A DNA stretch of 14,427 nt from an uncultured Myxococcales bacterium (GTDB taxonomy: Bacteria > Myxococcota > UBA4151): contig CAXGWI010000092.1 of the NCBI GenBank assembly GCA_964013405.1, forward strand, positions 1 to 14,427, given 5' to 3'. Under the pieces are notes generated by a model. It ran no database searches. It saw only the letters and a list, made by a program, of their open reading frames with translations, and had not been told where the DNA came from. Positions 2 to 14,427 of this stretch are shown here, in pieces (position 1 is the first letter of the stretch; each line of letters starts with the position of its first letter). The translations under genes and the position numbers were made by a program.

Positions 2-3000
2 ACGAACTTCGATGTGCGCCCCCAGGTTCACATCTTCTTCTCCGTGGCCGGCGGGACCGGTTCGGGCTCGCACCTGATGATGGCCTACCTTATCCGCCAG
101 GCCTTCGAGACCCAACTCTCGGGTCGAGTGCCTTTTATCACCGCAAACATCGTGCTGCCCCAGGTCTTTGGCCAGGTCGCCGGTGAGAATGCGCCGGGCA
201 TTTATGCCAATGGCTACGCGGCCCTCAAGGAGATCGAGCATCACATGAAGCTCGCCTCCAACTCGCCGCTGGTCCCCGAGCAGCTCGAGTTCCACTACAA
301 CCCAGGCCTGAAGCGGTCTTCCACCTATGTGAAGACCCCGCCCTTCGACCTGTGCTACTTGCTGGGTTCCCCCGGCGGCTTCCGCTTGGGCGGTAAAGTG
401 GGGGCGGTCTCCACAGTGGCGGCTGATGCCTGCTACTTGAATCTGTTCAGTCCTATCAGTGTGACGGTGGACAGCGATAAGGACAACTACGAGCAGCACT
501 GGAAGGCCCTGTATCCCATCGAGCTGGGCAAGCAGTACAGCCAGCCCGGCTACACGCCGCTTTGGGCCACCTATGGCGCCTCGGTCTACTTGGTGCCGGC
601 CAAGGAGATCGCCAACTACTGTGCGAAGAAGATGGCCTGCTCGGCCATCAACCGGACTCTGCTGATGAACGACCCCGATATGGTACCTCCGGGGCCTGCT
701 CGGGATGCGTTTAACGACAAGCCTAGCCCGGAGAAGCTCAAGAAGATGACCGAGGGTGAGCGCAAAGAAGCCCTCGATAACAGCTTTTGCTCTCGTTTGC
801 GGGCCGTCGCCGACGCAGAGCGGGCGTCCAACGTTGAAGGACAGAGCAAGTCGCCGTTGCGGGCTGCTGAGGAGTCCTATTCCAGCGCCGTCGGTGCCTG
901 GGATCGCCAGATGGAGGCCTGGAAGACTGAGATGGCCAACGTGGCGAAGAATGAGGGGACACTCACCAGCCCCTCAGGCGAGTCGCTGGGTGACAGTGGC
1001 GTGATGGGCTGGGCCAGTGGGCAGGGCAAGAAGAGAAAAGAGAAGGCAGCGAAGTTCGTCCAGGAGAAGGGTCAGAACATCATTACTCGTCTCGACAAGG
1101 CGATGGCCGATTTCTTCAATGAGCACGATATCGAGAGTCTCGGTCAGCGCTACTTCCTGCTGATGCTGTTGGCCGGCCGCGAAGTCGACAGCTACACCGG
1201 ACGCTGGGGTAAGGATAACTTGGTCTCCGGCGCCGAGGCCGTCAAAGGGGCCTTGGCGAACAACATCCTGGGCAAGGGGCAGGAGGACACGGCCAAGGGC
1301 TTCGACAGTCGAATGACCGTTAAAGAGGGCGGCTTCTTTGGTGGTGGTGATGATGAAGAAGCTGCGGCCGACGCGGCTGTGTCGGAAGCGGCCAAGTGGC
1401 TTGAAGGCCAGGTGGAACTCTATCGCAACGGGCTGGCCGAACAGCAACTCTACCTCATCGCTGATGCGGTCGCTGAAAAGGCCGCCAGCATGCTCGACAA
1501 CTTCCGGGATATCGAAGAGCGGGGAGCCAGTCGGGGTGATGAGATTAAAGCTGACTGCAAGGCCTTGCTCCGCCACGGCGGTGAGGAGGCGAACCTCTTC
1601 CAGAATGACATCGAATTGCTCTCCGATCCCAACGAGCGGCGACTCTGGGAGTGGTTCTTCGTCGAGAAATGCGAAATGGGCGATGCCAAGTTGCCCGATG
1701 CCACGGTGCAATCCCTGATCAGTCGGGCCATGACCGAGCCGATCGAAATGCCCGGGGGAAGTCGTCGGAATCCGGAGGCCTCTGAGGTCATCGATCGGGC
1801 CCTGGAGCTGCTTGAGACCGCAGCCTATGAACAGGTCAAAAAGTACACCGTGGGCTCCGGCACGCCTGGCGATCGCTACGAGCATGGTTTGACCATGGAG
1901 GAAGCGGCGATTCTGACCCAGGTCTACATGAACGTCGAGAAGGCGCAGGGGAACCTGTCCATGCGTGCAGCCCTGCAGAAGTTCGGCAAGAAGATGAAGG
2001 CCGACTGCGATCAGGACGAGACCACTCGGACGGCCCTACAAGGCATGATCGGTTCGCAGATTGCGCGGGTCTTTAACTCGGCAGCGGTCCTCGAGGCCTT
2101 CGACGACACCGCCATGACCGGCCAGGTGAAGGATCTGCGGATCTGCCTGCTGGCTTGTCACGAGGATTATCTCGAAGGCGGCGTCCTGAAAGACGCCCTC
2201 GACTCCCAGATGCGAGGGGTTTCACCCTTGGGCGGCTGGCATGACCGCAAGAAGATCATTGTGTACAACGCAGTGATCGGTGCGCCCGTCTATTGCTTCC
2301 CACGGGCTGTTGAGTTGCGAGAAGCCTATGACGAGATCAACGACATCGGCATCAAGGAACTCCACATCGACCAGAACTTCCGGGATTTGGATGATCTGGA
2401 TGTCAACGCTCGCCTCAGCAAATTGCGGGAGCAGGACGAGTACAAGGAGAAGCCCGAGTTCGCCCGGGATCTTGCGGTCTTCCTGACCGGCGTGCTTAAT
2501 CGCCAGGTTCGTCTCGACGAGACTGGGCTCTGGGAGGCGGTGAACGAGTACACCAGTCATGTGCCGGGCTCGGCGGGAACCTTTGCGTTCAACCGCAAGC
2601 TCGCCCCCAACCGCATCGGCGCGGTGAAGGCCTTTACGGACTTGTCCACTGATCCTGACGCCACCGTGCGCCGGGCCTGGTATGAGCCCGTACGCGAGCA
2701 TTTCAATAAGGCCTTCCAGCAGGGGGGTGACGGCATGGAAACAGATTTGGGTAAGAACCTGAGGTTGATCCACGAACAGTGGGGGAACCGGATTCTGGAG
2801 ATGAAGATGGCCCATGCCTCCACGAACGTGGAAGCAGTGGTCCAGAAGGATGGCCGCAAGGGCAACGTGCGGGATCACGTGAAGTCTCTTGGGATTCACG
2901 AGCTCCACGAACTCCAGATCTGTCACAGCGCGTTGGAGCGCTTCATTAAGGATCCCTTTAAGAAGACCGATGAGAAGCCATCGCTGCCGCCGGGGGTGAC

Positions 3001-3007
3001 GGTCTGA
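2..3007 (+). CDS. Tubulin/FtsZ-like GTPase (Tubulin_2 / FtsZl1-type) with long helical middle region; 5'-truncated
   Basis: The frame is open from position 2 (T-N-F-D-V-R-P-Q...), so the true start lies upstream and the GTG at 14 is internal. The tubulin signature IFFSVAGGTGSG is at 32-67. It is followed by motifs typical of this family: ANIVLPQVF, ANGYAALKEIEH, PPFDLCYLL, TYGASVYLVP, and a C-terminal IIVYNAVIGAPVY...Y...LHID block. The stop TGA is at 3005-3007. Confidence 0.9.
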   Translation, partial: TNFDVRPQVHIFFSVAGGTGSGSHLMMAYLIRQAFETQLSGRVPFITANIVLPQVFGQVAGENAPGIYANGYAALKEIEHHMKLASNSPLVPEQLEFHYNPGLKRSSTYVKTPPFDLCYLLGSPGGFRLGGKVGAVSTVAADACYLNLFSPISVTVDSDKDNYEQHWKALYPIELGKQYSQPGYTPLWATYGASVYLVPAKEIANYCAKKMACSAINRTLLMNDPDMVPPGPARDAFNDKPSPEKLKKMTEGERKEALDNSFCSRLRAVADAERASNVEGQSKSPLRAAEESYSSAVGAWDRQMEAWKTEMANVAKNEGTLTSPSGESLGDSGVMGWASGQGKKRKEKAAKFVQEKGQNIITRLDKAMADFFNEHDIESLGQRYFLLMLLAGREVDSYTGRWGKDNLVSGAEAVKGALANNILGKGQEDTAKGFDSRMTVKEGGFFGGGDDEEAAADAAVSEAAKWLEGQVELYRNGLAEQQLYLIADAVAEKAASMLDNFRDIEERGASRGDEIKADCKALLRHGGEEANLFQNDIELLSDPNERRLWEWFFVEKCEMGDAKLPDATVQSLISRAMTEPIEMPGGSRRNPEASEVIDRALELLETAAYEQVKKYTVGSGTPGDRYEHGLTMEEAAILTQVYMNVEKAQGNLSMRAALQKFGKKMKADCDQDETTRTALQGMIGSQIARVFNSAAVLEAFDDTAMTGQVKDLRICLLACHEDYLEGGVLKDALDSQMRGVSPLGGWHDRKKIIVYNAVIGAPVYCFPRAVELREAYDEINDIGIKELHIDQNFRDLDDLDVNARLSKLREQDEYKEKPEFARDLAVFLTGVLNRQVRLDETGLWEAVNEYTSHVPGSAGTFAFNRKLAPNRIGAVKAFTDLSTDPDATVRRAWYEPVREHFNKAFQQGGDGMETDLGKNLRLIHEQWGNRILEMKMAHASTNVEAVVQKDGRKGNVRDHVKSLGIHELHELQICHSALERFIKDPFKKTDEKPSLPPGVTV

Positions 3008-3029
3008 GTCGGATCGACAGAGACACTTG

Positions 3030-5921
3030 ATGGACCTGCAACCCAGGGCCGGGGTTCGTCCTGACAACCCGACCCTCATCCTCTCCTTAGGAGCGGTGGG
3101 GGAAGGGGTGTCGGCCAAGCTCCGCGCTCAGCATGAGGAGTTGGCAAGACTGGGCGCCCTCGATGGGCGTGGCGGTGTTGCTTTTGCCGAGCTCGATGGC
3201 GATTTGCGTCAGGCGATCAAGGCAGCCCAAGAGCTGATGGCCTATGGGCAACTGCTGGGGCAACGGGAGGTCTTGGAGCGCCAACGACCTCGTCTTGATG
3301 TGGTGGTCGTCGCCTCCTTGACCGAGGCAACGGTCCGGCAGCACCTGCAGCATCGGCTGGGTAAGTTACACAGCTTGTTGCTCCATCATATGGGCGCGAT
3401 CTTTGATCGCTTTCGCTACGGTCATGACCGCAACCTGACGGTGATCCCGGTGCTGGCCAGTGGTTATGTGCCTAGAGACCCCGAGGGACCGGCCGTGGAG
3501 GCAGCCCTTAAATCCTTGCTCGACTGGGTGGAGGCGATTCCCAAGGCCGACTTCGCAGATTCCGAGCCCGGTACCGAGACCGCCTTCGACTATGTCGGCG
3601 GCAGCGTCGAGTTGGAACTCGACCTCGCGCGGGGCAAGGAAGATCTGATCGCAGAGATTATGGATGGGGAAGGCCAAAAGGTCCGGCAACTCAAGCTCGG
3701 GCTGCACGTTCCCGGTAAGGTTCAGGTTCGCTGGGATGGGTTGTACCGCTCCGGCAAGAAGGCGGAGACAGGTCGCTATACCTTGCGCTTTCGGCCGCGG
3801 CTACAGTCCTCGGATTACGACGGCTACATCGATCAGGTCTTCGTCCTCGATGATGTCACAGACACCAGCGTCCTCAGTCCGGCGGAAGTCGAAGATAACA
3901 TCCGGAACTTCCTCGAGCTCATGCTCTATTCGGGGCTGCGGAACGCTCGGGACGCCGATGAGTATGAGCTGCTTCCGGCCGGGCGGGACTGGTTTCACCG
4001 AGTGGAGCCCGGTGAGCGCAACAGCCGGCTCTCCACTTTTAGTTGTGCCGCTCTTGAAATCCCCGTGTTCCGTTTGCATCGCTACTGTGCTCAAAAAGCA
4101 GTTCTAGAAGGACTGCGCATCCTCAAGGCTCGCCCCGAGGGTTACGATGAGGATCCGGTCCAAGTGGCCGGGCGGCGGGAGGACATGAGTGAGGCCCAGG
4201 CGGGCATCCGAGCCCTCTCTGTGGATCCGATTACCCGTAAGTTGGCCCAGGACCTGGGGGCCAAACTACAGTTGGAAACGTCCGCTGCCGACGAGGAAGA
4301 CGAGGACGAGGAGACCGACGAAGTTCCGTTGTTGGCTAGCAATGAGTCTTTGCTCATCGCCCTCGGCCCCAGCCGGCTCGAGTCGGATCAGCAACGCATC
4401 AAGGGGCTATGGCGACATTATCAGCGCTGGGGGATGGACCAACGGGTTCGGTCTGCAGCGGTGAAAGCCTACGAATTGGCCGATGAGATCGGTCGCCTGC
4501 TGCGCCAAAGCATTGACCTGATCCTCGATCAGAAAAAACCCGGTGTCCATTGGCGTGCGATCGAAGAGGTCGAATCCCAGATTCGAGAGGTCCAAAGCGG
4601 TTACGAAGATGCCCTCACCCGGCGTGATGAGGTGGAGCTTTCGCCCCTCCCTAGCCCCACACCCCTCAAGGATGCGAACGACGAGATCGTCGCGGCCATT
4701 CAGGAGCGACCGGAGCCGGAGCGCATGAAGTTCTGGGGCTCGATCATGGCCCTGTTGGTGGGGTCCAGGATCGGCGAGTTCTGCTTTCTTAAGTGGGGAG
4801 TCGACCCCTTGGTTGCCTTGGGCGATGAAGCGAACTGGCTCGATCTTTTGCGACACGTCGCCCTGCCCTATCTCGGAGGGATCCTCTTGGGCACAGCCGG
4901 CGTGGTTCTCGCGCTGTGGTTCTGGCTGGATCGGGCCACGGACCGGGTCCGAGATGCTTATGAGTCTTACTTGGACGTGTTTCGGGAGAGGGTGGTCGGT
5001 CGCAATAACGATTCCATCTACCGCTATTATGCCACCCGCCTGGATCTTCTGTTTCGCCAAGAGGTGGTGCGGGCGAACCTTCGCTCCGTTGAAGCCGTCC
5101 ACGCCGAGCATCGGGCCCTCAAGGGCATCGACGAGAGCCTTCGCATTCAAATCCAGAACATCGAAACAGCCCAGGAAGCCCTGGGCGTGGTCATCAATCG
5201 GGATGGAAGTGAGCAACTGGGCGACCTGTTGGGGATTGACGACAAGAGCGCCATGCGGACCCCGGGTCTCGCCGAAGACGATATCGAGGTGATTTATCGG
5301 AGCCGGGCCCTGGGCGTGGATTGCCCAGAAGAAGTGCCCCATCAACATTATGAAGTGGCGATCCAAATCTATCGGGAGGCTGCTTTAGGTCGGGGCTTGG
5401 CCCATCTGTACCAAGACTTCCGAGATCGAGTGCCTGCCTCGGATCTGGATGAGCTGCTCGTCTTTGGTGATGGCCGGGCCAGCGGCGTGCTCGATGGCTC
5501 TCTGATCCCCGATTATGCCCGCCGCCATGTGGTCGACTTTCTCAATGATCACACGCCGAATTTGAGCACCGGCCTGGATTGGGATGGCAACGTGATGAAT
5601 CCCCTCGGGCCCGACAGGTTGACGGCTGCAGAGGGAGAGCGGGACCGCCAGTACCTCATGCGCCTCGAAAATCAGCCCATGATCACCGCAGGCCCCACGG
5701 ACTTGGCCCGTTGGTTGAGCCGCTGGGAGGAGACCGATCCTTTGATGAAGAGCGGCCGGTTTCTCACGGTGGACCCCACCGCCGACCACCATGGCCATCG
5801 GGCCGATCGGGAGAATCGTCTCTATCTCGCCCGCGTGGTGCAAGGCCTACCCCTGCAAGCCGCTCGCAGTTTGCAAAGCCTAGAGACCTGGTTTGATGGC
5901 GAAGGGGGGGCTGAAGCGTGA
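3030..5921 (+). CDS. Degenerate (probably inactive) tubulin-like paralog with inserted FlgD Ig-like domain and a two-helix membrane anchor
   Basis: A ~963-aa ORF (ATG 3030; TTG 3027 is an alternative). PTLILSLGAVG matches the first glycine-rich loop position, and LDVVVVASLTEAT sits where VxxxxSxAGGTGSG is expected. EAALKSL, IDQVFVLDD, STFSCAALEIP......YCAQK and the C-terminal LYLARVVQGLPL all parallel gene 1. Two hydrophobic segments at ~4731-4928 are flanked by helical regions. Confidence 0.8.
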   Translation: MDLQPRAGVRPDNPTLILSLGAVGEGVSAKLRAQHEELARLGALDGRGGVAFAELDGDLRQAIKAAQELMAYGQLLGQREVLERQRPRLDVVVVASLTEATVRQHLQHRLGKLHSLLLHHMGAIFDRFRYGHDRNLTVIPVLASGYVPRDPEGPAVEAALKSLLDWVEAIPKADFADSEPGTETAFDYVGGSVELELDLARGKEDLIAEIMDGEGQKVRQLKLGLHVPGKVQVRWDGLYRSGKKAETGRYTLRFRPRLQSSDYDGYIDQVFVLDDVTDTSVLSPAEVEDNIRNFLELMLYSGLRNARDADEYELLPAGRDWFHRVEPGERNSRLSTFSCAALEIPVFRLHRYCAQKAVLEGLRILKARPEGYDEDPVQVAGRREDMSEAQAGIRALSVDPITRKLAQDLGAKLQLETSAADEEDEDEETDEVPLLASNESLLIALGPSRLESDQQRIKGLWRHYQRWGMDQRVRSAAVKAYELADEIGRLLRQSIDLILDQKKPGVHWRAIEEVESQIREVQSGYEDALTRRDEVELSPLPSPTPLKDANDEIVAAIQERPEPERMKFWGSIMALLVGSRIGEFCFLKWGVDPLVALGDEANWLDLLRHVALPYLGGILLGTAGVVLALWFWLDRATDRVRDAYESYLDVFRERVVGRNNDSIYRYYATRLDLLFRQEVVRANLRSVEAVHAEHRALKGIDESLRIQIQNIETAQEALGVVINRDGSEQLGDLLGIDDKSAMRTPGLAEDDIEVIYRSRALGVDCPEEVPHQHYEVAIQIYREAALGRGLAHLYQDFRDRVPASDLDELLVFGDGRASGVLDGSLIPDYARRHVVDFLNDHTPNLSTGLDWDGNVMNPLGPDRLTAAEGERDRQYLMRLENQPMITAGPTDLARWLSRWEETDPLMKSGRFLTVDPTADHHGHRADRENRLYLARVVQGLPLQAARSLQSLETWFDGEGGAEA
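3585..3797 (+). other. FlgD-type Ig-like domain inserted within gene 2
   Basis: VELELDLARGKEDLIAEIMDGEGQKVRQLKLGLHVPGKVQVRWDGLYRSGKKAETGRYTLRF fits the FlgD_ig pattern I-x-D-x-x-G-x-x-V-R-x-L...G-x-x-x-x-x-W-D-G-x-x-x-x-G-x-x-x-x-x-G-x-Y. WDG is at 3732-3740. Confidence 0.85.
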
Positions 5922-8900
5922 GCATGATCGGCACCTTCATCGCATTGGCTGTGCTCATCACCATTTTGGTGATCGGCTATTTCGTGGGGCCGCTCCTGAG
6001 CATCCTCCATCTCTTCATCGCCGGGATTTGGTACGTCCGAGTCAAGAAGCACAACAAAGAGAAACGACGTGAGCGGCCATCGACCGGTCCGGTGTATTTC
6101 CTGACCGGTGCCACCGTGCTGGCCATCTACGTCGTTGTCTATGCCCTCGACAAAACCCTGGCAGCCACCACCATCGATGGCCCCAAAGGGGGCGTGAGTT
6201 ACTTCTTCTGGGCGATTTGGGAGCCCTTTGGTGTCGGTGGGTGGGTCGATGGCGCCCTTTACGATCGCGCCAGCATGCTCATCCACACGGTGCTCATCCT
6301 GCCGATGTTGTGGTTGGGGGTGACCTTTTTTCGCCGCTATCTGCTTAAGAAGAATCCAGCCGAGAAGAGCTGGATGTGGCGGGGCATTGAGTTCGTTGCC
6401 GGCCTCTTAAGGCTTCAGGCCTTCCTGAAGGGCGGCCAAGAGAAGACAGCTCGGGAAGAGGAGGAAGAGAAAGCCGCTGGGGGGCCAAAGGAAGAGAAAT
6501 GGCCCCCCGAGGGCGAGAAGCCCAGTTGGGAGATCAAGCAGGAGTGGCCCTACCATCAGATCGGTTATGACACTGGCGGTGCGCCGGACCGAACTTGGCT
6601 TTGGCCTCACGAAACATCCCCGGTGTTTCGCAAGTGGATGTGGACTCTTGTCTTCGGTTGCCTGGTGGTTGTCACCGCCTCCAACTGCGTGGGCAAGGGC
6701 AACGGTGTCGGCAGCGCCTTCGGCCCCCTCAAGGGGCTCATCGCTGGTGAGGCGCAAAAGAAGCTAGGAGAGACCCTCGATGCGGTCGGTGAGGAGCTCT
6801 CAGGCGGTGATGATGCGGTCGAGGGGCACTGGTGGCAGACCTTCGTGGGTTCAGGCCAAGAGCTCGACGATCCCGTGGTCCTCGTGGGCCGGGATATTCG
6901 TGCTTCTGATCCCCGTTTCGTGGCGGCCATGCGCCTGGCGCAACACAAAGAGCGGGGCCTCGCCGTCTACACCCTCGCTGAGCCAGATCGGAAGATCGAG
7001 CGCCTGCTAGAGCGAGCCAGCAAAGGTGATGTTCAGCATGCCTACGTCCGCCTGTTAGAAGGTGAGAAAAAGCCCTTTAAGGCCGGCAAAAAACGGGATG
7101 AGTTCCTGCGGAGCCTGAAGGCCTTCACCCAGGCCGATGCCTACACCGAAGCCGATGTGAAAGCGCTGGGCTTTAGCGACATCGCTGACAGCCCCTTCGC
7201 CCAAATGCGCGGCACCAAGGACACCCAGTTGGAGGACGAGTGGGGTCTCGGCATGCTCTCCAAAGTGAAACCTGGTGCGAAGGGAGAGGGGGCTGACTGG
7301 GAACCACCGGCGCTTAGCCCCGGTATCATCAAGGCTCGAGTCGCCCGGGCCGGTGAGCCCGTGAAGAACTTCCTGAAGGATATGGGAGACGCCCTGGCCA
7401 ACGCCGGTGGTGGCATCCACTACGGTACCAGCAAGGGGCTTTGGTTGGCCTCGTTCTGGTTCTGCATCCTGTTGCTGATGGCCCTGGACACCACGACGGT
7501 GCCACCGCCGGAGGAGAAACCATCCGTGGAGGCAGAAGAGCCTCCCGTGCACTTCGGCCTGGTGGAGTTGCTGACGGCCATCACCCGGGCCAATGCGGAC
7601 GGTGATATCGCCGATCCACCAGAGATAGATGGTCGAGCGGAAAAGGATCCGCCCAGGCCCCACGGGAAGTTGGTGGGCGTGGGCAAGAACCGCTGTGTTT
7701 GGCCCGGCGGTCTCGATGATGAGCGCGAGATCGGTGACAAGGCCGAAGCCAGTGCGGCTGCGGGCGAAGAAGCCGACCGAACGACGGCCCAGCTTTCCCG
7801 TTTGGTGAAGGAGTTTGTCCAGCAGCTGGAGCCCAGTGGAGACGGCAGTACCGAGGCCCAAGGTAAACTCATGGAGAGCCAGCGCCGGGCCTTAGAGAAC
7901 TATGCCGCGGCCCGCCAGCGGACCAGTGGGCTGATCGGCTCCATTCAGAGTACAGGCGATAATCTGATCGAGGAGCGGGGAGCCCGTCTTGTGACGGCGA
8001 GTCGCTCGTTGAATCCCCTCTTGATCGGCCCCGAAGGCTCCGGCCGGACGACCACCCTGGCCCTCTTCGCCGCGGATACCGTCCTTCAGTACTGCCGGCG
8101 GGTGTTGTGGATCTGCACCGACGAGCGGCACCGGGAGCAAGTGGTCAATGGGGGCGGCGGCCAACGGGGCTTAGAAGATTGGTTTATGCGGTCCAACCTT
8201 CGCTGGGGGATCAAACGGGGCGTGGGGCTCTCGGGTCCCGGCAGCGTGGACTCGAATCGGGTGGAAGGTATTCGAACCGACATCGCATTCCTGACCCTCG
8301 AGGAGCTCGGCAACATCCATTTGGAGTTGCCTGGCCGCTACGATGAGCTCTTCACCGAGGTGGGGATGGTCGTCTTGGATGACCTTGACCGACTCTCGGG
8401 ACTTGAGGAGCAAAAAGCCTACTGGGTTCTTCGCCGTTTGAACTCCCGGCTAGAGCAGGATGCCGACTCGCCCGTCTCCCTCTTTTGGGCGGCGAGTTGC
8501 TCCCAGGTCGCTGAAGGCGCGGTGACTTGGGCTGAGGATTTGGTCGGTCAGAACTTCGACAGCGTTGATTTTGAGAAACTCAAAGGTGCGCCCCAGGTGA
8601 AGCGCTATCGCTTCTACCTCAATGAGTTCATCGATAAGCGGCGTAACCCCCTAACGGTGCATGACCTGGTTCGCTGGCTCGAAGCCCTGAAGATCCCTTG
8701 GCATCTGCGGCGCTGTGAAGCTCATCTGCGGGATTTGGACTTGGTCTCGGCCGTCTCCGGCTTGGCCAATACCTATCATGTGGCCGACCCGCGGCAGGCT
8801 GCGGTGGTCATTCTGCAGGGTAACTTTGCCGAGGCCAACCGGGAGGCAACCCGCCTCGCACACGCAGGCAGCTTGTCGGCCCGGGAGTGCATGGGCTTCT

Positions 8901-11900
8901 TCATGGATGTGGCTGCTCAGGAGGTCTCCAGTTTCCAGATGATGGACGAAGGAGACCCCCTGCGGGCCTTGATCCAAGAGCTCCCGCGGGCCGTTGCCAG
9001 CCATGGCAATGAAGTCCTGCATCGTCGACAGATCGACGCGGTGCATGTGGAGAACTGGCAGGTCCAAGATCGGATTCAGGACCTCTTCGAGAAGGAGGCG
9101 GTAGAAAGCCGTCAGTCCGATTACGAAGATCATCTCCAGACCGAGGACTTCGTCGACTTTACCGAAAACCACCAGGCTTTCCGTCATCGTCAACGGGTGC
9201 ATCTCGCCCTCGGCCGGTGGCCGGTTGTGCCCTTCATGGCTGGCACGGCAACGGCAGAGTCTGTGGCCGTTCTCGATCGCTCTGCGGGCGAGGTGCTCAC
9301 CGAGGTTGATGCTGCAGTCGCCGACATCCATTATTATCCAGGCCGGGTTTTTCTCCATCCCAACGGGCGATATAAGGTCCGGGAGCGGGAGCAATTGAAA
9401 GGGGATGCCAAGCAACTCCCCCGGCTGCTGGTGGAGCGGATCGAGGACGATCAACTCTCAAGCCCGCGAAAAACCCATAAGCTCATAGACCTAGGAGATG
9501 AATGGGATTGGCGGGAGGATCGAATCAGCATCGGGCGCTTCCCGATCGCGGTCCAAGAAGGGCCTGTGGCGGTCGAGACCACCGTCGAGGGTGTGAATCT
9601 ACTCGAGGCCACCAACCTCAAGTTGATGGAGCGCCGCCAATTCAAGGAGAGTTCGCCCAAGTGTGACTACGAGACCCGTGCGGTCTACATCCGCTTTGAA
9701 GAGCATATGGAGCCCAAGGGTGGGGCGCCACCGGTCCAGCTGCTGGCGGCGACGGGGCGGAGCCTCTTGCCCCTGCTGATGCGGGGCTGTGAAGAGTATG
9801 TGGACGTCCACCTGCTGGGCTCTGAGGCGGTGCCCGAGGGCCTCGCGCTTTGGGAGACCGTCCCCGGTGGGATGGGCTACATGGGGCGTTTCTATGATGA
9901 ACTCGTCCTTGATTGGCTGCGGCTCATTCGTATGCGCCTCGAGCGCTCTGTGGACGTGCATCGTCTGGTGGCGGTCCATGACCACACGGGGAAGCTGGGC
10001 GGTGTTCAGGCCGATCGAGAGAAGGCCTTTGAGACCCACGGTGACAGCCCACTGGGCCGGGCCCTGGCCTGGCTGGATGCGGTCCTCGAAGGCGAGTCCG
10101 ATCCCGGTCAATTCATGGGGCAGGTCACCCACGGCGGTCTTCCCGGTGAAGGGCAGAGCGGTGATATTGGGCGAGTCTGGCAATCCGACAGCGGGCGGAC
10201 GGATCAGCTGGTCTGGACTGAGCACCGTTGGGAGTTGAGCGCCCGCTTGGCCCATCTGCTCCAATACCGAGAGGTCATTCTCCACACAGCCCACGAGCGG
10301 CAAACCCTCCAGAGCGCGCTGCTGTTTAGCGACAATATCGAGGACTTGGTCGCTCGAGCACAGGATTTAGGTTTCCTCATGCGACTCGAGGGGGGCGGGA
10401 AGCCTTCCATCGAAACCAACAGCGAGCGCTACTCTGAGGAGTTCTTACCTTGGGCGATCAACGCCAACGTGGCTATCGACTTGGCCATGGAGCGGTTGAG
10501 GCCTTTGGGTCACCTCTTCGCTCGAGTGGCCCAGCAGTTAACCGAGGCGGTGGACAATAACCCGGGCCTCGGGCGCTACCTCACCGCGGAGTTCATTCTG
10601 GGCTTCGTCCAGGCCATGGATCACGATGAAAGCCTCAAGCACCTGCGGGATATCAAGGTCCAAAAGACCGAGAAGGAGCCCACCGCCGAGGAGAAGCCAC
10701 CGGCCGGGGGTGTGGTGCTCGAGTTCTCCGATCTCAAATACGATGAGGCCACCAAGCAACTGCAGCACGCCTCCACGGGCAAAAAGATCGTCGTACACTT
10801 ACGGGATCGGGACAAAGGAGAGCAGGAGCCACGCCTCCATACCCATTACTGCGCGACCATCTCCAAGTTCAACAACGAGGGGAAGTTCGACCGGGCCTAT
10901 ATCGCGGCCAAACCCGGCGCAGACAGCTACCGAGTCATCAGCACCGACACCGGCGAAGCCAGCGAGCTCACCTTGCCCCACTGTGGTCATTGCGAGCGCA
11001 TGACGGCGGCCGTTGAGAAGGCCACCATGATTCCCCAAAAGACGGTGGAGATGGATTACCAAGAGGCCCAAATCGTCTCGCCCTTGAGGGCCTTGGCGAT
11101 GCGCAGTGGCAACACGGAGTCCAAGATGCTGCTGGCCGTGGCGCTCCTGCGGCTCTTGGGGATCGATGCGATGATGATGAAGAACAGCCTCACCGGCCGC
11201 CGTCGCCTTTTGGTGGCCTGCGACCCCAGCGCCGATCAAGGCGCGGGCTACGACGGCTATCTCCTCAAAGAGGGTTTCGAGGATGAGCATTGCATCGTCC
11301 CGGTCGAAGGCAGCAAGTACTTCCTCGCCGACGTGGCCGAGCCCCTTCAGCCTGGACGGGTAGGGGAGCCGGTCACGCTGGCCGAAACCGAGATGCTCGA
11401 CATTGCGAGCGGTAACCTCATCCAGTTCTTCGTGACGAAGGGCTGGAAGCCGTTGACCGGCAGCTCCGAGGCACCGGAAGCCTTCTCCGGCGTCCAGCGG
11501 CAAACGGGTCGCGCCCAGGATCTCCATGGTGCCGTCGCTGCACCCTTACCCGCGATCCTCCTCGCTGAGCAGGCCGCGTTTGTCCATGAACTGACGGGGC
11601 TGAGCCCGCGAGATGCGGAGCGCTTGGTCATCGAGGCGCAGCCTTGGCGCCTCGATTCGGCGAACACGTTGATCGAGATGAGTGATGGGAGTGCGAGCCT
11701 ACCTGTGGAGGAGAAGGGGCGCCCCTGGGTGCAGCCGCTCCTCGATGGTTTGCGTCGAGCCCATTGTCGTATCAAGAGCGCCGATTTAGATCCTGAGCGG
11801 GCCGAGGCCATCGCCCACGTGGCATCGGTCTATGGTTTGGAGGCGAGCCTCATCGAGGCATGGCTCGATGGCAACCACGCGGGTCGCCCCTTGGATCAGG

Positions 11901-12052
11901 CCGGTGGGCGGGAAGCCTGGCGCCGTCATGGTGATTATCGGATCGAGGCCGGTGACACCCATTACCTCCTTCGGGGCACGGCTTCGCTCAGTGCCGGTCG
12001 CTTTATGCAAGCGATCCAGCGCCGCTACGGAAAGGAACAGGCCCATGGCTAA
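5918..12052 (+). CDS. Giant multidomain membrane protein: multi-TM N-terminus + degenerate MrfA/YprA (DUF1998)-like SF2 helicase module + degenerate transglutaminase-like domain
   Basis: A 2044-aa ORF. Its GTG overlaps the gene 2 stop (GTGA 5918-5921) and is preceded by GAAGGGGGGG. About 5-6 hydrophobic helices lie in the first ~525 aa. Helicase-like motifs occur in order from 7868 to ~10090, and transglutaminase-like motifs from ~10590 to 11370. The stop TAA is at 12050-12052. Confidence 0.88.
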   Translation: MSMIGTFIALAVLITILVIGYFVGPLLSILHLFIAGIWYVRVKKHNKEKRRERPSTGPVYFLTGATVLAIYVVVYALDKTLAATTIDGPKGGVSYFFWAIWEPFGVGGWVDGALYDRASMLIHTVLILPMLWLGVTFFRRYLLKKNPAEKSWMWRGIEFVAGLLRLQAFLKGGQEKTAREEEEEKAAGGPKEEKWPPEGEKPSWEIKQEWPYHQIGYDTGGAPDRTWLWPHETSPVFRKWMWTLVFGCLVVVTASNCVGKGNGVGSAFGPLKGLIAGEAQKKLGETLDAVGEELSGGDDAVEGHWWQTFVGSGQELDDPVVLVGRDIRASDPRFVAAMRLAQHKERGLAVYTLAEPDRKIERLLERASKGDVQHAYVRLLEGEKKPFKAGKKRDEFLRSLKAFTQADAYTEADVKALGFSDIADSPFAQMRGTKDTQLEDEWGLGMLSKVKPGAKGEGADWEPPALSPGIIKARVARAGEPVKNFLKDMGDALANAGGGIHYGTSKGLWLASFWFCILLLMALDTTTVPPPEEKPSVEAEEPPVHFGLVELLTAITRANADGDIADPPEIDGRAEKDPPRPHGKLVGVGKNRCVWPGGLDDEREIGDKAEASAAAGEEADRTTAQLSRLVKEFVQQLEPSGDGSTEAQGKLMESQRRALENYAAARQRTSGLIGSIQSTGDNLIEERGARLVTASRSLNPLLIGPEGSGRTTTLALFAADTVLQYCRRVLWICTDERHREQVVNGGGGQRGLEDWFMRSNLRWGIKRGVGLSGPGSVDSNRVEGIRTDIAFLTLEELGNIHLELPGRYDELFTEVGMVVLDDLDRLSGLEEQKAYWVLRRLNSRLEQDADSPVSLFWAASCSQVAEGAVTWAEDLVGQNFDSVDFEKLKGAPQVKRYRFYLNEFIDKRRNPLTVHDLVRWLEALKIPWHLRRCEAHLRDLDLVSAVSGLANTYHVADPRQAAVVILQGNFAEANREATRLAHAGSLSARECMGFFMDVAAQEVSSFQMMDEGDPLRALIQELPRAVASHGNEVLHRRQIDAVHVENWQVQDRIQDLFEKEAVESRQSDYEDHLQTEDFVDFTENHQAFRHRQRVHLALGRWPVVPFMAGTATAESVAVLDRSAGEVLTEVDAAVADIHYYPGRVFLHPNGRYKVREREQLKGDAKQLPRLLVERIEDDQLSSPRKTHKLIDLGDEWDWREDRISIGRFPIAVQEGPVAVETTVEGVNLLEATNLKLMERRQFKESSPKCDYETRAVYIRFEEHMEPKGGAPPVQLLAATGRSLLPLLMRGCEEYVDVHLLGSEAVPEGLALWETVPGGMGYMGRFYDELVLDWLRLIRMRLERSVDVHRLVAVHDHTGKLGGVQADREKAFETHGDSPLGRALAWLDAVLEGESDPGQFMGQVTHGGLPGEGQSGDIGRVWQSDSGRTDQLVWTEHRWELSARLAHLLQYREVILHTAHERQTLQSALLFSDNIEDLVARAQDLGFLMRLEGGGKPSIETNSERYSEEFLPWAINANVAIDLAMERLRPLGHLFARVAQQLTEAVDNNPGLGRYLTAEFILGFVQAMDHDESLKHLRDIKVQKTEKEPTAEEKPPAGGVVLEFSDLKYDEATKQLQHASTGKKIVVHLRDRDKGEQEPRLHTHYCATISKFNNEGKFDRAYIAAKPGADSYRVISTDTGEASELTLPHCGHCERMTAAVEKATMIPQKTVEMDYQEAQIVSPLRALAMRSGNTESKMLLAVALLRLLGIDAMMMKNSLTGRRRLLVACDPSADQGAGYDGYLLKEGFEDEHCIVPVEGSKYFLADVAEPLQPGRVGEPVTLAETEMLDIASGNLIQFFVTKGWKPLTGSSEAPEAFSGVQRQTGRAQDLHGAVAAPLPAILLAEQAAFVHELTGLSPRDAERLVIEAQPWRLDSANTLIEMSDGSASLPVEEKGRPWVQPLLDGLRRAHCRIKSADLDPERAEAIAHVASVYGLEASLIEAWLDGNHAGRPLDQAGGREAWRRHGDYRIEAGDTHYLLRGTASLSAGRFMQAIQRRYGKEQAHG
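7868..10090 (+). other. Degenerate SF2 helicase module (MrfA/YprA/Hrq1-like) within gene 3
   Basis: The motifs are Q-motif-like LMESQRRA (7868), Walker A-like GPEGSGRTT (8027-8053), Ia-like RVLWIC, Ib-like TDIAFLT and Walker B-like MVVLDDLD (DDLD 8378-8389) followed by VLRRL. Further family-like blocks are VAVLDRSAGEVLTEVD....IHYYPGRVFLH..GRYKV (~9260-9380), GPVAVETTVEG, YETRAVYI and LWETVPGGMGY (~9848-9880). Confidence 0.75.
10592..11370 (+). other. Degenerate transglutaminase-like (papain-fold) domain within gene 3, split by an insert
   Basis: FILGFVQAM ... SPLRALAMRSGNTESKMLLAVALLRLLGIDAMMM ... EGSKYFLADV...PG resembles the pattern FVQ.I.Y...P.E.L....GDCDxKxxLxxxLL..LG....L...H....G..Y...E....G. 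The catalytic Cys position reads Thr (GNT, 11108-11116). Confidence 0.7.
12032..12036 (+). promoter_or_regulatory. Ribosome binding site for gene 4
   Basis: AAGGA lies 8 nt upstream of ATG 12045. Confidence 0.65.
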
Positions 12053-12479
12053 GCAGCGGGAAGAAGACGCTGTCTTTGTCGGCTTTGAAAGCAATCTCCC
12101 TGAGCGGGTGCATCGGGAGCGCAAGGATGAGAGTCTGGGGCCGCCTCCGGTGGATCCCGACCTGATCGCTGCGGCCCTTGAAGAAGCGGAAGCCGCCGAG
12201 GCGAAGAGCCAGGAGGCACCACCAGCGGAAGCAGTGGACGACGAGGAGTTCGACGACGAGGAGTCCGAAGGAAAACCCTGGTTAAAATGGGTGATTATTG
12301 CCGTGGTCGTGGCTGCCATCGGTTACTTCGCTTACCGTCAGATGCAGGACACACCCGAGCCAGCGCCGGCCCAAGAAAGCAGTCAGCCGGCGCAGCCGAA
12401 CGAAGCTGAGGAAGGGGACGGGCCAGAGCCAAGCCCGGCCGATACGCCTCCAGCAAATGATCAAGAGGAGGCGCCGTGA
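12045..12479 (+). CDS. Small acidic, Pro/Glu-rich single-pass membrane protein (144 aa), function unknown
   Basis: ATG 12045 has an AAGGA RBS and overlaps the gene 3 stop by 8 nt; the ORF-track start at 11832 is over-extended. One TM segment, WLKWVIIAVVVAAIGYFAY, is flanked by low-complexity acidic regions. Confidence 0.85.
   Translation: MAKQREEDAVFVGFESNLPERVHRERKDESLGPPPVDPDLIAAALEEAEAAEAKSQEAPPAEAVDDEEFDDEESEGKPWLKWVIIAVVVAAIGYFAYRQMQDTPEPAPAQESSQPAQPNEAEEGDGPEPSPADTPPANDQEEAP
12465..12471 (+). promoter_or_regulatory. Ribosome binding site for gene 5
   Basis: GAGGAGG lies just upstream of GTG 12476, which overlaps the gene 4 TGA. Confidence 0.7.
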
Positions 12480-13150
12480 GCACCGAGACCGAAACACCGC
12501 AGCCTGCGGGCGACGAAGTGGAGGCTGCCGAGGCCCGTGAAGCGCCGGCTGCCGAGGCAGGGCCCGCGGCCGTTCAAGCCCCTGAAGATCCGCCGGCGGC
12601 GGTGCCGGCCACGGAGGAGGAGATGGAGCCTCAGCGCAGTCCAGCCATGGACTGGGCCGTGGCCTTCACGGCCCAACAGCCCTTGGGTCATGGGCGGATT
12701 GAAGGGGTGATTCTCAGCGGCTCGGCGATCTACACGATCTTGCGGCAGGCCTTCGGTGATCGACTGAAGGATCACGGCCTGATTCACTACGGTTCAAAAC
12801 ATTATCTCGTGCCGACCAAGACCCAGTGGGAGCACCTGCTGGACGAGACTCTTGATTTGGACAGTCGCTTGCAGGGGACTCCGTGGTTGCGGGCTGATTT
12901 GGCCTGGCCTTTACGCTTCGACCTCCTACGTCGGGCCGCGGGCTCTGAAGCGACGGACTCAGAGGTGGGCCTGGTGCCCCTGGCCTGCGGCGTGCTCGTG
13001 GATCTTCCGGTGGCTGCCGGGCGTTCTTGCCTGAATGTTTTGATCAGTCATGATGAGGGCAAAAACCAGGTATGGATTGTGGATCCAGCCAATGGTCGGC
13101 GCCGGCCCGTCGATGGCTCGGATCGAGATTTGACGGTCGTCTACATTTAG
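12476..13150 (+). CDS. Hypothetical protein: acidic disordered N-tail + degenerate papain/transglutaminase-like domain (MOA Agglutinin_C-like)
   Basis: A 224-aa ORF with GTGA coupling and a strong RBS. HYLVPTKTQWEHLL ... WLRADLAWPLR ... LACGVLV ... SCLNVLISHD ... VWIVDPANG parallels Y..P.......I / FDCDDFA..LK / A.G...G / HAxN..I / V...EPQ of MOA-type domains. Confidence 0.8.
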   Translation: MSTETETPQPAGDEVEAAEAREAPAAEAGPAAVQAPEDPPAAVPATEEEMEPQRSPAMDWAVAFTAQQPLGHGRIEGVILSGSAIYTILRQAFGDRLKDHGLIHYGSKHYLVPTKTQWEHLLDETLDLDSRLQGTPWLRADLAWPLRFDLLRRAAGSEATDSEVGLVPLACGVLVDLPVAAGRSCLNVLISHDEGKNQVWIVDPANGRRRPVDGSDRDLTVVYI

Positions 13151-13162
13151 ATAGGCGGCGCG

Positions 13163-14427
13163 GTGCTCCTTTCCGCTTTCGTGTTCAGTTTGGGAATGAG
13201 CCTTCCGGTTCTGGCCGGGGCTGCGCCTGGGCCTGCCGAGGCTTGTCTTGAGGTGTTTCCGGGGGGGGTGGCGCGGCCGGAGGAGCCGATGCGCCGCGCC
13301 CAGACTTGGACCCTTTGGGCCCAGCAAGCGGACCACCCGGTGGGATTCTACCGCCAAGCCGCCAAGCTCTATGAATGCGCCATCGAGAAGTCGAAAGCGC
13401 TTCAGAAAGAGGACAGCGAAAATGTAGGGAAGTACGCAGCCCTTCAACGGCAAGCTGAAACAGCGCTCCAACAAGCTCAGGTACGGGTTGAGAACAACTG
13501 GGATACCTTTCGGAGTCAGTACCCGGCGGTGTGGTGGTTCTTAGATGAGAACCCGACCATCGAGCGTTACGAGGACGCCGACATGGCCGCCGTGGGGCAG
13601 GCCTGGCACGGACTGGTCGCTGGCCTGGAGCCCTTGAAGATCCCTCGCCTGACCGTTCTGCCCCGCTGTCTTGAGATGGCTGGGATGAAGACAGGCCATG
13701 ACAAAGCTGCGAGCTGTGCCCATTTACGAGGCGAGCTACTCCAAGTCCTATCGCAAAGCCCCCGCTTTCAAGGCGTCGATGATGCCCGGGCTGTGGAGCT
13801 GCTGGGTGCGGACTATGACGACCTTGTGACGGAGCCAAAGGCTGCAGGCAGCGAAGAGGAGCGAGGGCTCGTTAGGCGCTTGGCCGCTGGTCTTGGGGTC
13901 GGCGAGGTGATGCTCCTTGATCTACGGCTCAGCGACCGATTCCACCTGCCGGCGGAACAGGATTGGGCCGATGTGGCCCGTATCGACTTGAATTACCGGA
14001 TCTGGAGTGAGCGGGAACAGGCCTGGACCGCCGACGGACGTCGAGGCGCAGTGGTGGCCAACGTGGGCAAGGGTTGGGGGATTGGTTTCGTCGCGATCAT
14101 CTTGCTCTTTATCATCTCCGTTCTGTTCGCCACCGTGGCCAGTTGGTTACGCAGGAACCTGGATCGGTTAAAGGCCGGGCGGGGGCTGCAACTGGATAAG
14201 GCGGAGTCACTGGACGAGGACTGGGTTAAGGCTTTGATCCTTTACTTGGGGGTCCCGCTTCTCGGCTTTACGGTGGGCGGTGGGCTCGGGGTTCTCGCCG
14301 GCATGGTGAGCGAGCAGTTTGTCCCCAGCTGGGGCACGCCGGCGCTTACGCCCCTACGGGTAGTGTATATACCCCGCGTTCACGTACTCTGGTGGCCCTT
14401 CATCCATGGTTTCGTGGTGATGGTCTT
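13163..14427 (+). CDS. Exported-domain multi-pass membrane protein, probable TolB-N/CsgG-like domain; 3'-truncated
   Basis: Translated by hand: the frame is open from GTG 13163 to the window end (421 codons, no stop). It begins with signal-peptide-like MLLSAFVFSLGMSLPVLAGAA, then a helical region, then LTVLPRC...LRGELLQVLSQSPRFQGVDD...RLAAGLGVGEVMLLDL...RIDLNYRIWS. TM segments follow at ~14075-14146 and ~14231-14306, with a third starting near 14385. The exact start codon is uncertain. Confidence 0.85.
   Translation, partial: MLLSAFVFSLGMSLPVLAGAAPGPAEACLEVFPGGVARPEEPMRRAQTWTLWAQQADHPVGFYRQAAKLYECAIEKSKALQKEDSENVGKYAALQRQAETALQQAQVRVENNWDTFRSQYPAVWWFLDENPTIERYEDADMAAVGQAWHGLVAGLEPLKIPRLTVLPRCLEMAGMKTGHDKAASCAHLRGELLQVLSQSPRFQGVDDARAVELLGADYDDLVTEPKAAGSEEERGLVRRLAAGLGVGEVMLLDLRLSDRFHLPAEQDWADVARIDLNYRIWSEREQAWTADGRRGAVVANVGKGWGIGFVAIILLFIISVLFATVASWLRRNLDRLKAGRGLQLDKAESLDEDWVKALILYLGVPLLGFTVGGGLGVLAGMVSEQFVPSWGTPALTPLRVVYIPRVHVLWWPFIHGFVVMV

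Follow-up and report, generated by a model that had tools for sequence, protein, structure and literature searches.

Operons that encode FtsZ-like-1 proteins (FtsZl1; PF13809) together with vWA proteins were described by Makarova and Koonin (2010; PMC2875224), who left open in their replies to reviewers whether FtsZl1 forms filaments; the published review asked about filament-forming elements and about the combination of a cytoplasmic tubulin relative with periplasmic vWA and OmpA proteins. In the Plesiocystis locus of that paper (supplement 5, part 2), a vWA gene, FtsZl1 and a gene for a hypothetical protein of about 900 aa follow one another in the order also seen here, and in the paper's passages on these operons the downstream protein is given no family and no neighbor is called a tubulin paralogue. 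In section 29 of their paper, Kaur et al. (2020; PMC7159879) describe a second related system, the tubulin theme among GAP1-N2 DO-GTPase conflict systems, whose firmicute versions carry two tubulin-domain genes with coiled coils and vWA near the membrane; the locus analyzed here likewise has two tubulin-domain genes and vWA. According to that section, however, the theme is confined to firmicutes and actinobacteria, and neither tubulin is described there as inactive or membrane anchored. Published work already covers the operon type as well as versions with two tubulins. Our literature search found no experimental study of FtsZl1 operons, which were predicted in 2010, and no description of a dead membrane twin or of a split tubulin fold.

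Gene 1 as an FtsZl1 protein

The window (the whole 14,427-nucleotide stretch analyzed; all features below lie on its forward strand) opens inside gene 1 (positions 2 to 3007), which is cut by the contig start, so that its 5′ end is absent from the window. Gene 1 matched the Pfam family Tubulin_2 (PF13809) at 106.5 bits against a cutoff of 27 (E = 2.3 × 10−30). About 158 of its N-terminal residues are encoded on contig C102 of the same genome (96% identical, with a 20-nt overlap with the window start), and the full orthologue in a congener (G001; E = 7.5 × 10−43; 147.6 bits to PF13809) has 1158 aa; FtsZl1 proteins, which have a long coiled-coil middle and a helical C-terminal part, range from about 1000 to 1200 aa. 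The T4 phosphate-binding loop, SVAGGTGSG, is of the GGGTG(S/T)G type and lies at positions 41 to 67 (AGGTGSG at nt 50 to 67). All 45 relatives that were aligned have AGGTGSG unchanged, among loci partly chosen by this motif. As in the published FtsZl1 proteins (PMC2875224), there is an FtsZ-like domain at the N terminus with GGTGSG, a length of about 1100 aa, a vWA gene directly upstream and a canonical FtsZ elsewhere. Membership in this operon type was missed by the initial annotation. Gene 1 is an FtsZl1 protein with an intact GTP-binding loop, and from its sequence it is predicted to be an active GTPase.

Two further elements were placed by conservation and position. The motif DSDKDNY (positions 470 to 490) is a candidate T7/H8 catalytic loop: D and N were invariant (45/45), Y was kept in 41 of 45 members, and the motif sits between the helix and the strand aligned to helix 285–301 and strand 335–344 of gene 2; the equivalent position reads INLDFRD in the genome's own FtsZ. 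A late strand, KKIIVYNAVIGAP (positions 2249 to 2299), is kept in the family and may, by analogy with gene 2, be the tubulin fold's last strand (S10) in a displaced position. Because the genome also encodes a separate, canonical-looking FtsZ, and Tubulin_2 was present in just 2 of 61 related genomes, the FtsZl1 system is regarded as accessory.

Homology and predicted fold of gene 2

Gene 2 (positions 3027 to 5921; an ORF of 964 aa) carries no tubulin annotation. The initial annotation had proposed that it is colinear with gene 1, and all ten peptides quoted in support were found where they had been placed. Pairwise BLASTP of the two products was not significant (best E = 0.29), so detection of the similarity required profiles. 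A comparison of the alignments of both families with HHalign, a check that the annotation had named, reproduced the proposed N-terminal register (probability 79.5, E = 1.5 × 10−5, 192 columns), pairing SLTEATVRQ, EAALKSL, YIDQVFVL and LSTFSCAA of gene 2 with SVAGGTGSG, YAALKEI, PFDLCYLL and WATYGASV of gene 1; the core of the match is a gene 1 strand-helix unit common to both genes, likely S7-H9 (positions 563 to 631). Further runs between the families gave E values of 2 × 10−5 and 4.4 × 10−5, and controls with reversed alignments gave 0.19 and 0.61. The proposed C-terminal match fared less well: KKIIVYNAVIGAPV / NRLYLARVVQGLPL was the top alignment of one profile run at a nonsignificant E of 0.3, and a second run did not recover that register (another register, E = 0.25), although the gene 2 strand of the pair does superpose on the last strand of FtsZ in structural alignment. 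The gene 1 HMM matched gene 2 alone weakly (E = 0.004, two targets), and a gene 2 family HMM run over all ORFs of the loci at a threshold of E = 0.01 added only proteins in the gene 2 slot and FtsZl1 proteins (best FtsZl1 match, E = 4.8 × 10−6). Tubulin_2 weakly matched 13 of 44 gene 2 members, none reported above the cutoff, and a search of PDB sequences with the gene 2 N-terminal alignment yielded nothing significant. On this profile evidence, the gene 1 and gene 2 families are homologous.

The AlphaFold model of gene 2 (pLDDT 79.1, pTM 0.67) points the same way. Its top 16 structural matches were all tubulin, FtsZ, CetZ or TubZ (Z = 11.0 to 14.9; VIA-align), with the best unrelated structure at 10.3 over 106 residues. 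Model residues 13–964 aligned with CetZ chain residues 1–348 (Z = 14.9, rmsd 5.6, 266 aligned), residues 11–941 with FtsZ 9–316 (Z = 12.6, rmsd 4.5, 244 aligned), and residues 13–941 with Escherichia coli FtsZ 10–316. For the N-terminal model, where a different fold would have counted against the initial annotation, the top 14 matches were all of the tubulin family (Z = 9.6 to 11.1), and the best unrelated Rossmann structure reached 8.9. The fold was recovered by the exhaustive aligner only: with Foldseek, both gene 2 models had no tubulin among the matches listed, which were filled by an immunoglobulin-like (Ig) insert and generic helical hairpins, and the ESM Atlas gave no usable match for the gene 2 N terminus or for the C-terminal part of a gene 1 relative. 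Gene 2 is predicted from the model to be a member of the tubulin superfamily by fold, and not an active-GTPase member. It shares the two-domain fold of CetZ, TubZ/PhuZ, FtsZ, BtubA/B and alpha/beta/gamma tubulin (3zid, 4xcq, 4b45, 2vaw, 2bto, 3cb2; Z = 11 to 15) at 8 to 13% identity, but these solved tubulins are compact and have neither a long insert nor a transmembrane hairpin.

In the model, which is the only one of a split fold and covers gene 2 only, a complete tubulin fold is interrupted by a helical insert of ∼480 residues tipped by a two-helix hydrophobic hairpin. This stalk (positions 4155 to 5387; model helices 377–787) lies between the two halves of the fold and was unaligned to tubulins in the structural search, both of its flanks being aligned. 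The displaced C-terminal half-domain (positions 5646 to 5849) is likely S8-H10-S9-S10 (strands 874–880, 911–915 and 931–941; helix 890–903), with pLDDT below 50 at residues 856–873, 880–889 and 916–924. PMC2875224 reported no counterparts of T6-H7 and no tubulin-type C-terminal domain in FtsZl1, whereas the gene 2 model has both, displaced by the insert. A FlgD-type Ig domain (positions 3573 to 3809, aa about 183–261; PF13860, E = 3.1 × 10−9; Z = 9 to 10.6 against FlgD structures) is also inserted in the tubulin domain, and was found in 2 of 44 gene 2 members, only in this genome and the congener among the aligned loci. In 17 loci from Acidobacteriota, Bradymonadales and similar lineages, an insertion of ∼430 to 480 aa directly follows the second strand; a second tubulin repeat, considered as an explanation for these long versions, was rejected, the extra segment being this insertion.

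The hairpin, halfway along the stalk (positions 4731 to 4928; aa about 569–587 and 613–634), is predicted from hydropathy to be a membrane anchor. Hydropathy agreed with the earlier claim that only gene 2 has transmembrane helices, with family-mean peaks of 1.96 and 1.57 over the hairpin and a gene 1 family maximum of 1.19. At least one segment above 1.7 was present in 61 of 69 gene 2 ORFs, compared with 4 of 80 gene 1 ORFs. At this locus, hydropathy rises above 1.5 in gene 2 (aa 616–634, 2.0) and nowhere in gene 1 (peak, 1.41); the first helix of the hairpin reaches about 1.3 in this copy, a weak value beside the family mean of 1.96.

The loops that bind and hydrolyze nucleotide have diverged or disappeared. 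The first strand and a degenerate T1 loop (positions 3072 to 3110) read GLGxFG in the gene 2 family and GLGGxG in gene 1, with G25 kept in 56 of 59 aligned members. Loss of the phosphate-binding loop, as initially annotated, extends across the family: SLTEATVRQ (positions 3315 to 3341; ADLGE in the family) stands where gene 1 has SVAGGTGSG, 48 of 59 members have glutamate at the fourth position, and a T4-like motif was found at the homologous place in 0 of 69 family ORFs (three regular-expression hits fell elsewhere in the sequence). The family alignment contains no T3 GAG segment, and its columns 301–320, presumed to be the T7 site, are variable and gapped where gene 1 has its invariant DN. 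Conserved positions are G25, E100, F126, P146, L283 and F295, which we take to lie at or beside the T1, T4, T5, T6 and H7 elements. No column is invariant in the gene 2 family, and mean identity is 25%, versus 50% in the gene 1 family. Taken as a whole, gene 1 and gene 2 are very probably an active FtsZl1 protein and its dead, membrane-anchored paralogue.

One alternative would make the head of gene 2 a decaying relic, its working part being the helical hairpin with its membrane tip, which would shape or open the membrane or serve gene 3 as a scaffold; gene 1 would then not be contacted in the manner of a tubulin. A class of four loci (F12) is recognisably related to gene 2 by the stalk only (N-terminal probability 5.6), and membrane proteins with helical hairpins are the best Foldseek matches to the full model (a low TM-score of about 0.1), as a relic head might lead one to expect; these helical matches are, however, generic (rmsd 28 or more), and several phyla retain the head fold, together with conserved residues and, in the model, with both halves redocked. 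We consider a relic head improbable.

Operon structure and distribution

Of the 71 loci with DNA downstream of the active gene, 69 have a gene 2 relative after it, and the two genomes without such a neighbor have a gene 2 member elsewhere. In the reverse search via gene 2, the active gene was upstream in 16 of 17 loci, the exception having just 153 bp of upstream sequence. The usual order is vWA (one to four copies), tubulin, dead twin and a membrane helicase-like gene; vWA-like genes were found in 57 and gene 3 relatives in 53 of 80 loci. Immediately upstream of gene 1, in the congener and on contig C102, is a 959-aa DDSGSM protein (weak VWA_2, E = 0.013). In the congener, vWA has an OmpA/Sel1 gene upstream of it, the orthologue of which is on another contig here. 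Gene 3 (positions 5918 to 12052), the usual fourth member, has a 4-nt overlap with the gene 2 stop, hydrophobic segments at its N terminus and a helicase-like domain (DEAD, weak, E = 0.026; TIGR03817, E = 2 × 10−5). OmpA, protein kinase and P-loop GTPase genes are frequent neighbors in FtsZl1 operons; neither a protein kinase nor a P-loop GTPase gene was found among the six genes of the window, and the locus is adjoined by this membrane helicase-like gene instead. In two RNA-library runs from one marine sample, contigs span most of gene 1 together with portions of genes 2 and 3; such contigs are silent on transcription, its level and co-transcription.

The pair occurs in dozens of genomes, with loci mostly in Myxococcota, Acidobacteriota and Proteobacteria and with cultured carriers such as Enhygromyxa, Sandaracinus and Vitiosangium, and a gene 2-type neighbor is absent at some FtsZl1 loci (Bacillus and Cylindrospermopsis records). 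Genes downstream of FtsZl1 in Meiothermus and on an Azospirillum plasmid looked twin-like by eye (E = 0.03 and 0.31) and were excluded from the counts. Distances of gene 1 and gene 2 across 41 loci were correlated (rho = 0.78; permutation maximum 0.21), which reflects shared history only and is no sign of coevolution.

The strict four-gene order with one to four vWA copies and the patchy spread (the 2 of 61 related genomes above) would suit a fixed one-to-one, GTP-controlled switch that forms no filament: a membrane complex, with a vWA receptor outside and the helicase-like protein inside, would sense an invader or envelope contact, much as in GTPase-centered conflict systems, and gene 2 would be a pseudo-enzyme adaptor. 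The large helical insert could impede filament packing, and tubulin-plus-vWA genes have been assigned to predicted conflict systems (Kaur et al. 2020). However, neither DO-GTPase2 (PF19993) nor GAP1-N2 (PF20013), the families that define those systems, was found in this 94% complete genome, both controls being positive in Corynebacterium glutamicum; PADLOC had no match for genes 1 or 2, and neither PADLOC nor NCBIfam named either one as a tubulin or defense gene. Gene 1 also keeps an invariant candidate T7 motif, and T7 in known relatives serves hydrolysis at the head-to-tail interface. On balance, such a switch seems rather unlikely.

A possible seed or cap at the membrane

Our preferred reading, to which we would give a probability of about 40% for the mechanism as a whole, is that gene 2 serves the gene 1 protein as a seed or cap fixed in the membrane. 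The model predicts that the stalk splits the fold after helix H9 and that the hairpin tip enters the inner membrane twice, with both halves of the tubulin head staying cytoplasmic on the stalk. Gene 1 would bind GTP and assemble head to tail, and the gene 2 head would present a single tubulin-type docking face, fixing or starting a short polymer of gene 1 at a place on the membrane that the outward-facing vWA protein and the helicase-like membrane protein may mark. Without T3, T4 and the candidate T7, gene 2 should be unable to hold GTP in the normal way or to set off hydrolysis in a neighbor, and these losses suit a seed, cap or adaptor bound at polymer ends better than they suit a subunit that alternates with gene 1. 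Because most of the conserved gene 2 residues belong to loops on the face with the nucleotide pocket, a gamma-tubulin-like template is favored over a cap that blocks hydrolysis.

The initial annotation compared the pair to alpha/beta tubulin or BtubA/B, and the likeness is loose: the genes are paired paralogues, but both subunits of those heterodimers have nucleotide loops, and gene 2 is without T3, T4 and the candidate T7. To our knowledge, every subunit of CetZ, TubZ/PhuZ, FtsZ, BtubA/B and alpha/beta/gamma tubulin has retained the T4 loop and binds nucleotide. An alternating one-to-one heteropolymer of the alpha/beta or BtubA/B kind, raised in the title of the initial annotation, with every second subunit anchored and the filament coating or bending the membrane, would agree with adjacent, tightly linked, one-to-one paralogues that both appear to have the whole fold. 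Yet gene 2 lacks both the phosphate loop and the candidate catalytic loop, so that nowhere in an alternating chain would a GTP pocket meet a catalytic loop, and low conservation and big head insertions are ill suited to two polymer interfaces; we judge such a polymer improbable, and rank it below a seed or cap at the membrane.

Several observations also count against the seed or cap itself. An identity of 25% with no invariant column is loose for a tight polymer interface; the head insertions (Ig; ∼430 to 480 aa) would crowd the favored pocket face; and the F12 class is related by its stalk only, while some FtsZl1 loci have no twin. A complex prediction with the N-terminal 390 aa of the congener's gene 1, aa 8–372 of gene 2, GTP and Mg, the constructs being without the displaced C-terminal half-domains and stalks, gave scores of 0.01 and 0.00 (mark, 0.32), a result that speaks neither for nor against contact between the two proteins.

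It is conceivable, if unlikely, that FtsZl1 proteins at large form a distinct prokaryotic tubulin cytoskeleton, with a complete head on a helical stalk of 450 to 500 residues after H9, in which the GTP-dead, transmembrane-tipped paralogue is a membrane nucleator, the counterpart of a gamma-tubulin template, linking vWA surface sensing to polymer assembly.

The gene 2 model suggests that the seemingly missing elements for filament formation exist, displaced by the long insert, and a membrane-anchored dead paralogue may be the link between the cytoplasmic tubulin relative and periplasmic vWA/OmpA. An integral-membrane pseudo-enzyme with a tubulin fold would, if true, widen the known roles of the tubulin superfamily.

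Gene layout and the FtsZl1 protein

The window is a whole contig (CAXGWI010000092.1), on whose forward strand gene 1 (positions 2 to 3007) is open at its 5′ end at the contig start, gene 2 (3027 to 5921) starts 19 nt after gene 1, and gene 3 (5918 to 12052), encoding a membrane helicase-like protein, overlaps the stop of gene 2. Gene 1 matched Pfam Tubulin_2 (E = 2.3e-30) and is a member of Makarova and Koonin's FtsZl1 family; its nearest named relatives were from Myxococcota. A congener genome has the intact orthologue (1158 aa), with a 959-aa vWA-type gene and an OmpA/Sel1 gene upstream of it. In the genome of the window, the rest of gene 1 at its 5′ end was located, along with the vWA gene, on contig C102, whose sequence shares a 20-nt overlap with the start of the window. 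This genome also encodes a distinct FtsZ-like protein whose motifs are ordinary; Tubulin_2 was present in 2 of 61 related genomes.

Gene 3 contains a Walker A-like GPEGSGRT at residue 704 and LDDLD where a DEAD box would be expected. As the Walker A pattern matched just 21 of 57 gene 3 relatives, many of these proteins may be helicases that have lost activity. Further towards the end, the segment SGNTESK presumably resembles a transglutaminase-like site minus its cysteine, and residues 1571 to 1701 weakly matched ZorE HNH models (E = 3.7e-6). Three more genes on the same strand (window 12045 to 14425; 144, 224 and >421 aa) have hydrophobic segments and, among the fetched loci, grouped with the congener's copies only; the third of them is paralogous to a gene on contig C115 (29% identity).

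Homology of genes 1 and 2 and loss of the GTPase motifs

Pairwise BLASTP of the gene 1 and gene 2 products gave no significant match (best E = 0.29), so the claim of homology had to draw on relatives. Family-against-family HHalign joined the two (probability 79.5, E = 1.5e-5; repeat runs, E = 2e-5 and 4.4e-5; reversed controls, E = 0.19 and 0.61), in the same register as the colinear similarity described in the initial annotation, whose ten quoted peptides were all correctly positioned. At an E-value cut-off of 0.01, the gene 2 family HMM reached FtsZl1 proteins and nothing unrelated. Among 45 gene 1 relatives, T1 (GLGGxG), T3 (GAGQ), T4 (AGGTGSG) and a candidate T7 DN pair were invariant or nearly so, the conservation of T4 being in part built in by a search pattern that used it. 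The 59 gene 2 relatives had a GLGxFG-like T1, ADLGE at the T4 site (Glu in 48 of 59) and a gapped, variable candidate T7 site, and a T4-like motif was found at the homologous place in none of 69 gene 2 ORFs, which bears out the proposal that gene 2 has lost its phosphate-binding loop. The labels T1 to T7, H7 and S7 to S10 are those we presume to apply, placed by means of the aligned ranges and of the FtsZ sequence from this genome.

Membrane segments had likewise been assigned to gene 2 and not gene 1, and at least one hydrophobic segment above 1.7 was indeed seen in 61 of 69 gene 2 ORFs (some truncated) versus 4 of 80 gene 1 ORFs; family-mean hydropathy peaked twice in gene 2 (1.96 at 569 and 1.57 at 613) and had no peak exceeding 1.19 in gene 1. 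The functional interpretation placed on these features is upheld in part. The portion that fares worse is a heteropolymer in which genes 1 and 2 would strictly alternate: this is improbable because gene 2 provides no GTP pocket and no catalytic loop.

Predicted fold of gene 2

An AlphaFold model of gene 2 residues 1 to 378 (pLDDT 78.9, 44 sequences) had tubulin family members as its top 14 matches among 48,161 chains (best unrelated Rossmann fold, 8.9), including CetZ at Z = 11.1 (rmsd 4.1, 178 aligned). The top 16 structural matches of the full-length model (pLDDT 79.1, pTM 0.67, 59 sequences) were likewise tubulin family members, consistent with the suggested relationship; this model aligned over the entire CetZ chain (Z = 14.9, rmsd 5.6, 266 aligned; model 13 to 964 on chain 1 to 348) and also covered FtsZ 9 to 316 (E. 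coli FtsZ, 10 to 316). Coverage by the N-terminal model stopped at about FtsZ residue 230, and the tubulin fold is therefore predicted to be split: the nucleotide domain with the next strand and helix would extend to about residue 367, ∼480 mostly helical residues (the stalk) would separate the two halves, and residues of about 874 to 941 would complete the C-terminal sheet. Two membrane passes would leave the two head halves on the same side of the membrane, matching the need of a split fold. The split remains a prediction because parts of the 874 to 941 region have pLDDT <50, rmsd to the tubulin family is 4 to 6 Å, and tubulins were not among the matches listed by Foldseek for the gene 2 models. 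A similar strand-helix-strand-strand pattern was seen by eye near the end of gene 1; the profile match was not significant.

The only Pfam domain seen in gene 2 was a FlgD-type Ig domain (window 3573 to 3809, forward strand), inside the presumably cytoplasmic tubulin head and present in 2 of 44 members, those of the window genome and its congener; contig C11 carries a stretch weakly similar to it (E = 0.009). A conserved, uncharacterised insertion of about 430 to 480 aa follows the second strand of the head in 17 loci (L038:13786-15063, from another genome, and 16 similar loci), where gene 1 is also longer (about 1230 to 1300 aa). The gene 2 head tolerates insertions of both kinds.

Operon coupling and a candidate role at the membrane

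A gene 2 relative lay directly downstream of gene 1 in 69 of 80 loci chosen for their gene 1 relatives; these are the best 80 of at least 380 confirmed, contain many kin and are not independent. In 9 others the contig edge fell inside gene 1, and 2 had no gene 2 neighbour. Both genomes without the neighbour carry a gene 2 member elsewhere (L110:6903-9278 and L111:5039-7486) and have kept FtsZl1, the operon being split, with no FtsZl1, vWA or helicase-like match within the 15 to 16 kb fetched around these members. In one of these two cases, locus L078, the gene 2 member appears to share the contig of the locus and to sit ∼10.6 kb further downstream, a placement based on the equal length of the contigs. 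Searching metagenome loci in reverse, with a myxobacterial gene 2 alignment, placed FtsZl1 directly upstream in 16 of 17, the single miss having just 153 bp of upstream DNA. HMMs built from the same 80 loci found vWA-like genes in 57 and helicase-like genes in 53. No Pfam domain was found in 30 gene 2 relatives from a profile search, which were named no more than “hypothetical”. Many loci (L074, L076, L051, L059, L060 and L069) have two to four tandem vWA-type genes upstream of FtsZl1, suggesting a variable receptor array. On plasmids of Meiothermus (L086:14712-16751) and Azospirillum (L088:15447-17579), genes downstream of FtsZl1 resemble still more degenerate twins by eye, with profile scores short of significance; in Azospirillum, a vWA gene and a gene for a membrane helicase-like protein are present at the locus as well.

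Divergent classes accounted for 14 of the 69 downstream relatives: 7 were well supported (N-terminal HHalign probability 96.7), 3 were weak (17.6; two of these with HMM E = 4e-10 and 3.5e-7) and 4 were matched via the stalk only (95.7; N-terminal, 5.6). It is conceivable, at long odds, that the head is a relic and the stalk the working part.

FtsZl1/vWA operons were defined in PMC2875224, where membrane remodelling was proposed; in its available text, T6-H7 and a tubulin-type C-terminal domain could not be identified in FtsZl1, and the Plesiocystis downstream gene is given as hypothetical, with no family. The term “inactivated” is absent from all six of its supplements. Tubulin_2 proteins are described without FtsZ_C and Tubulin_C Pfam domains in the portion of PMC9871819 consulted. 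In the accessible part of PMC7159879, firmicute systems that combine a pair of tubulin genes with vWA genes are tied to DO-GTPase and GAP1-N2, neither of which was found in the window genome; the source data of that paper could already annotate an inactive tubulin. Within the accessible open-licence literature we found no paper describing a split fold, or an FtsZl1 paralogue that is both GTP-dead and anchored in the membrane. The main rival, in which gene 2 would belong to a non-polymer switch within a sensing or conflict complex, is possible if rather unlikely. Conservation was 25% for gene 2 and 50% for gene 1, and this poor conservation, together with the head insertions, disfavours a tight interface of any kind.

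Our tentative reading, at a probability of roughly 0.4, is that gene 2 is a membrane-fixed seed or cap for gene 1. Gene 1 would form a GTP-driven polymer or oligomer, to which gene 2 would offer one tubulin-type face at the membrane, adjoining the outward-facing vWA protein and the membrane helicase-like protein. The boldest reading, and a rather unlikely one, is that the system is a tubulin cytoskeleton borne on stalks and equipped with a membrane nucleator of its own.
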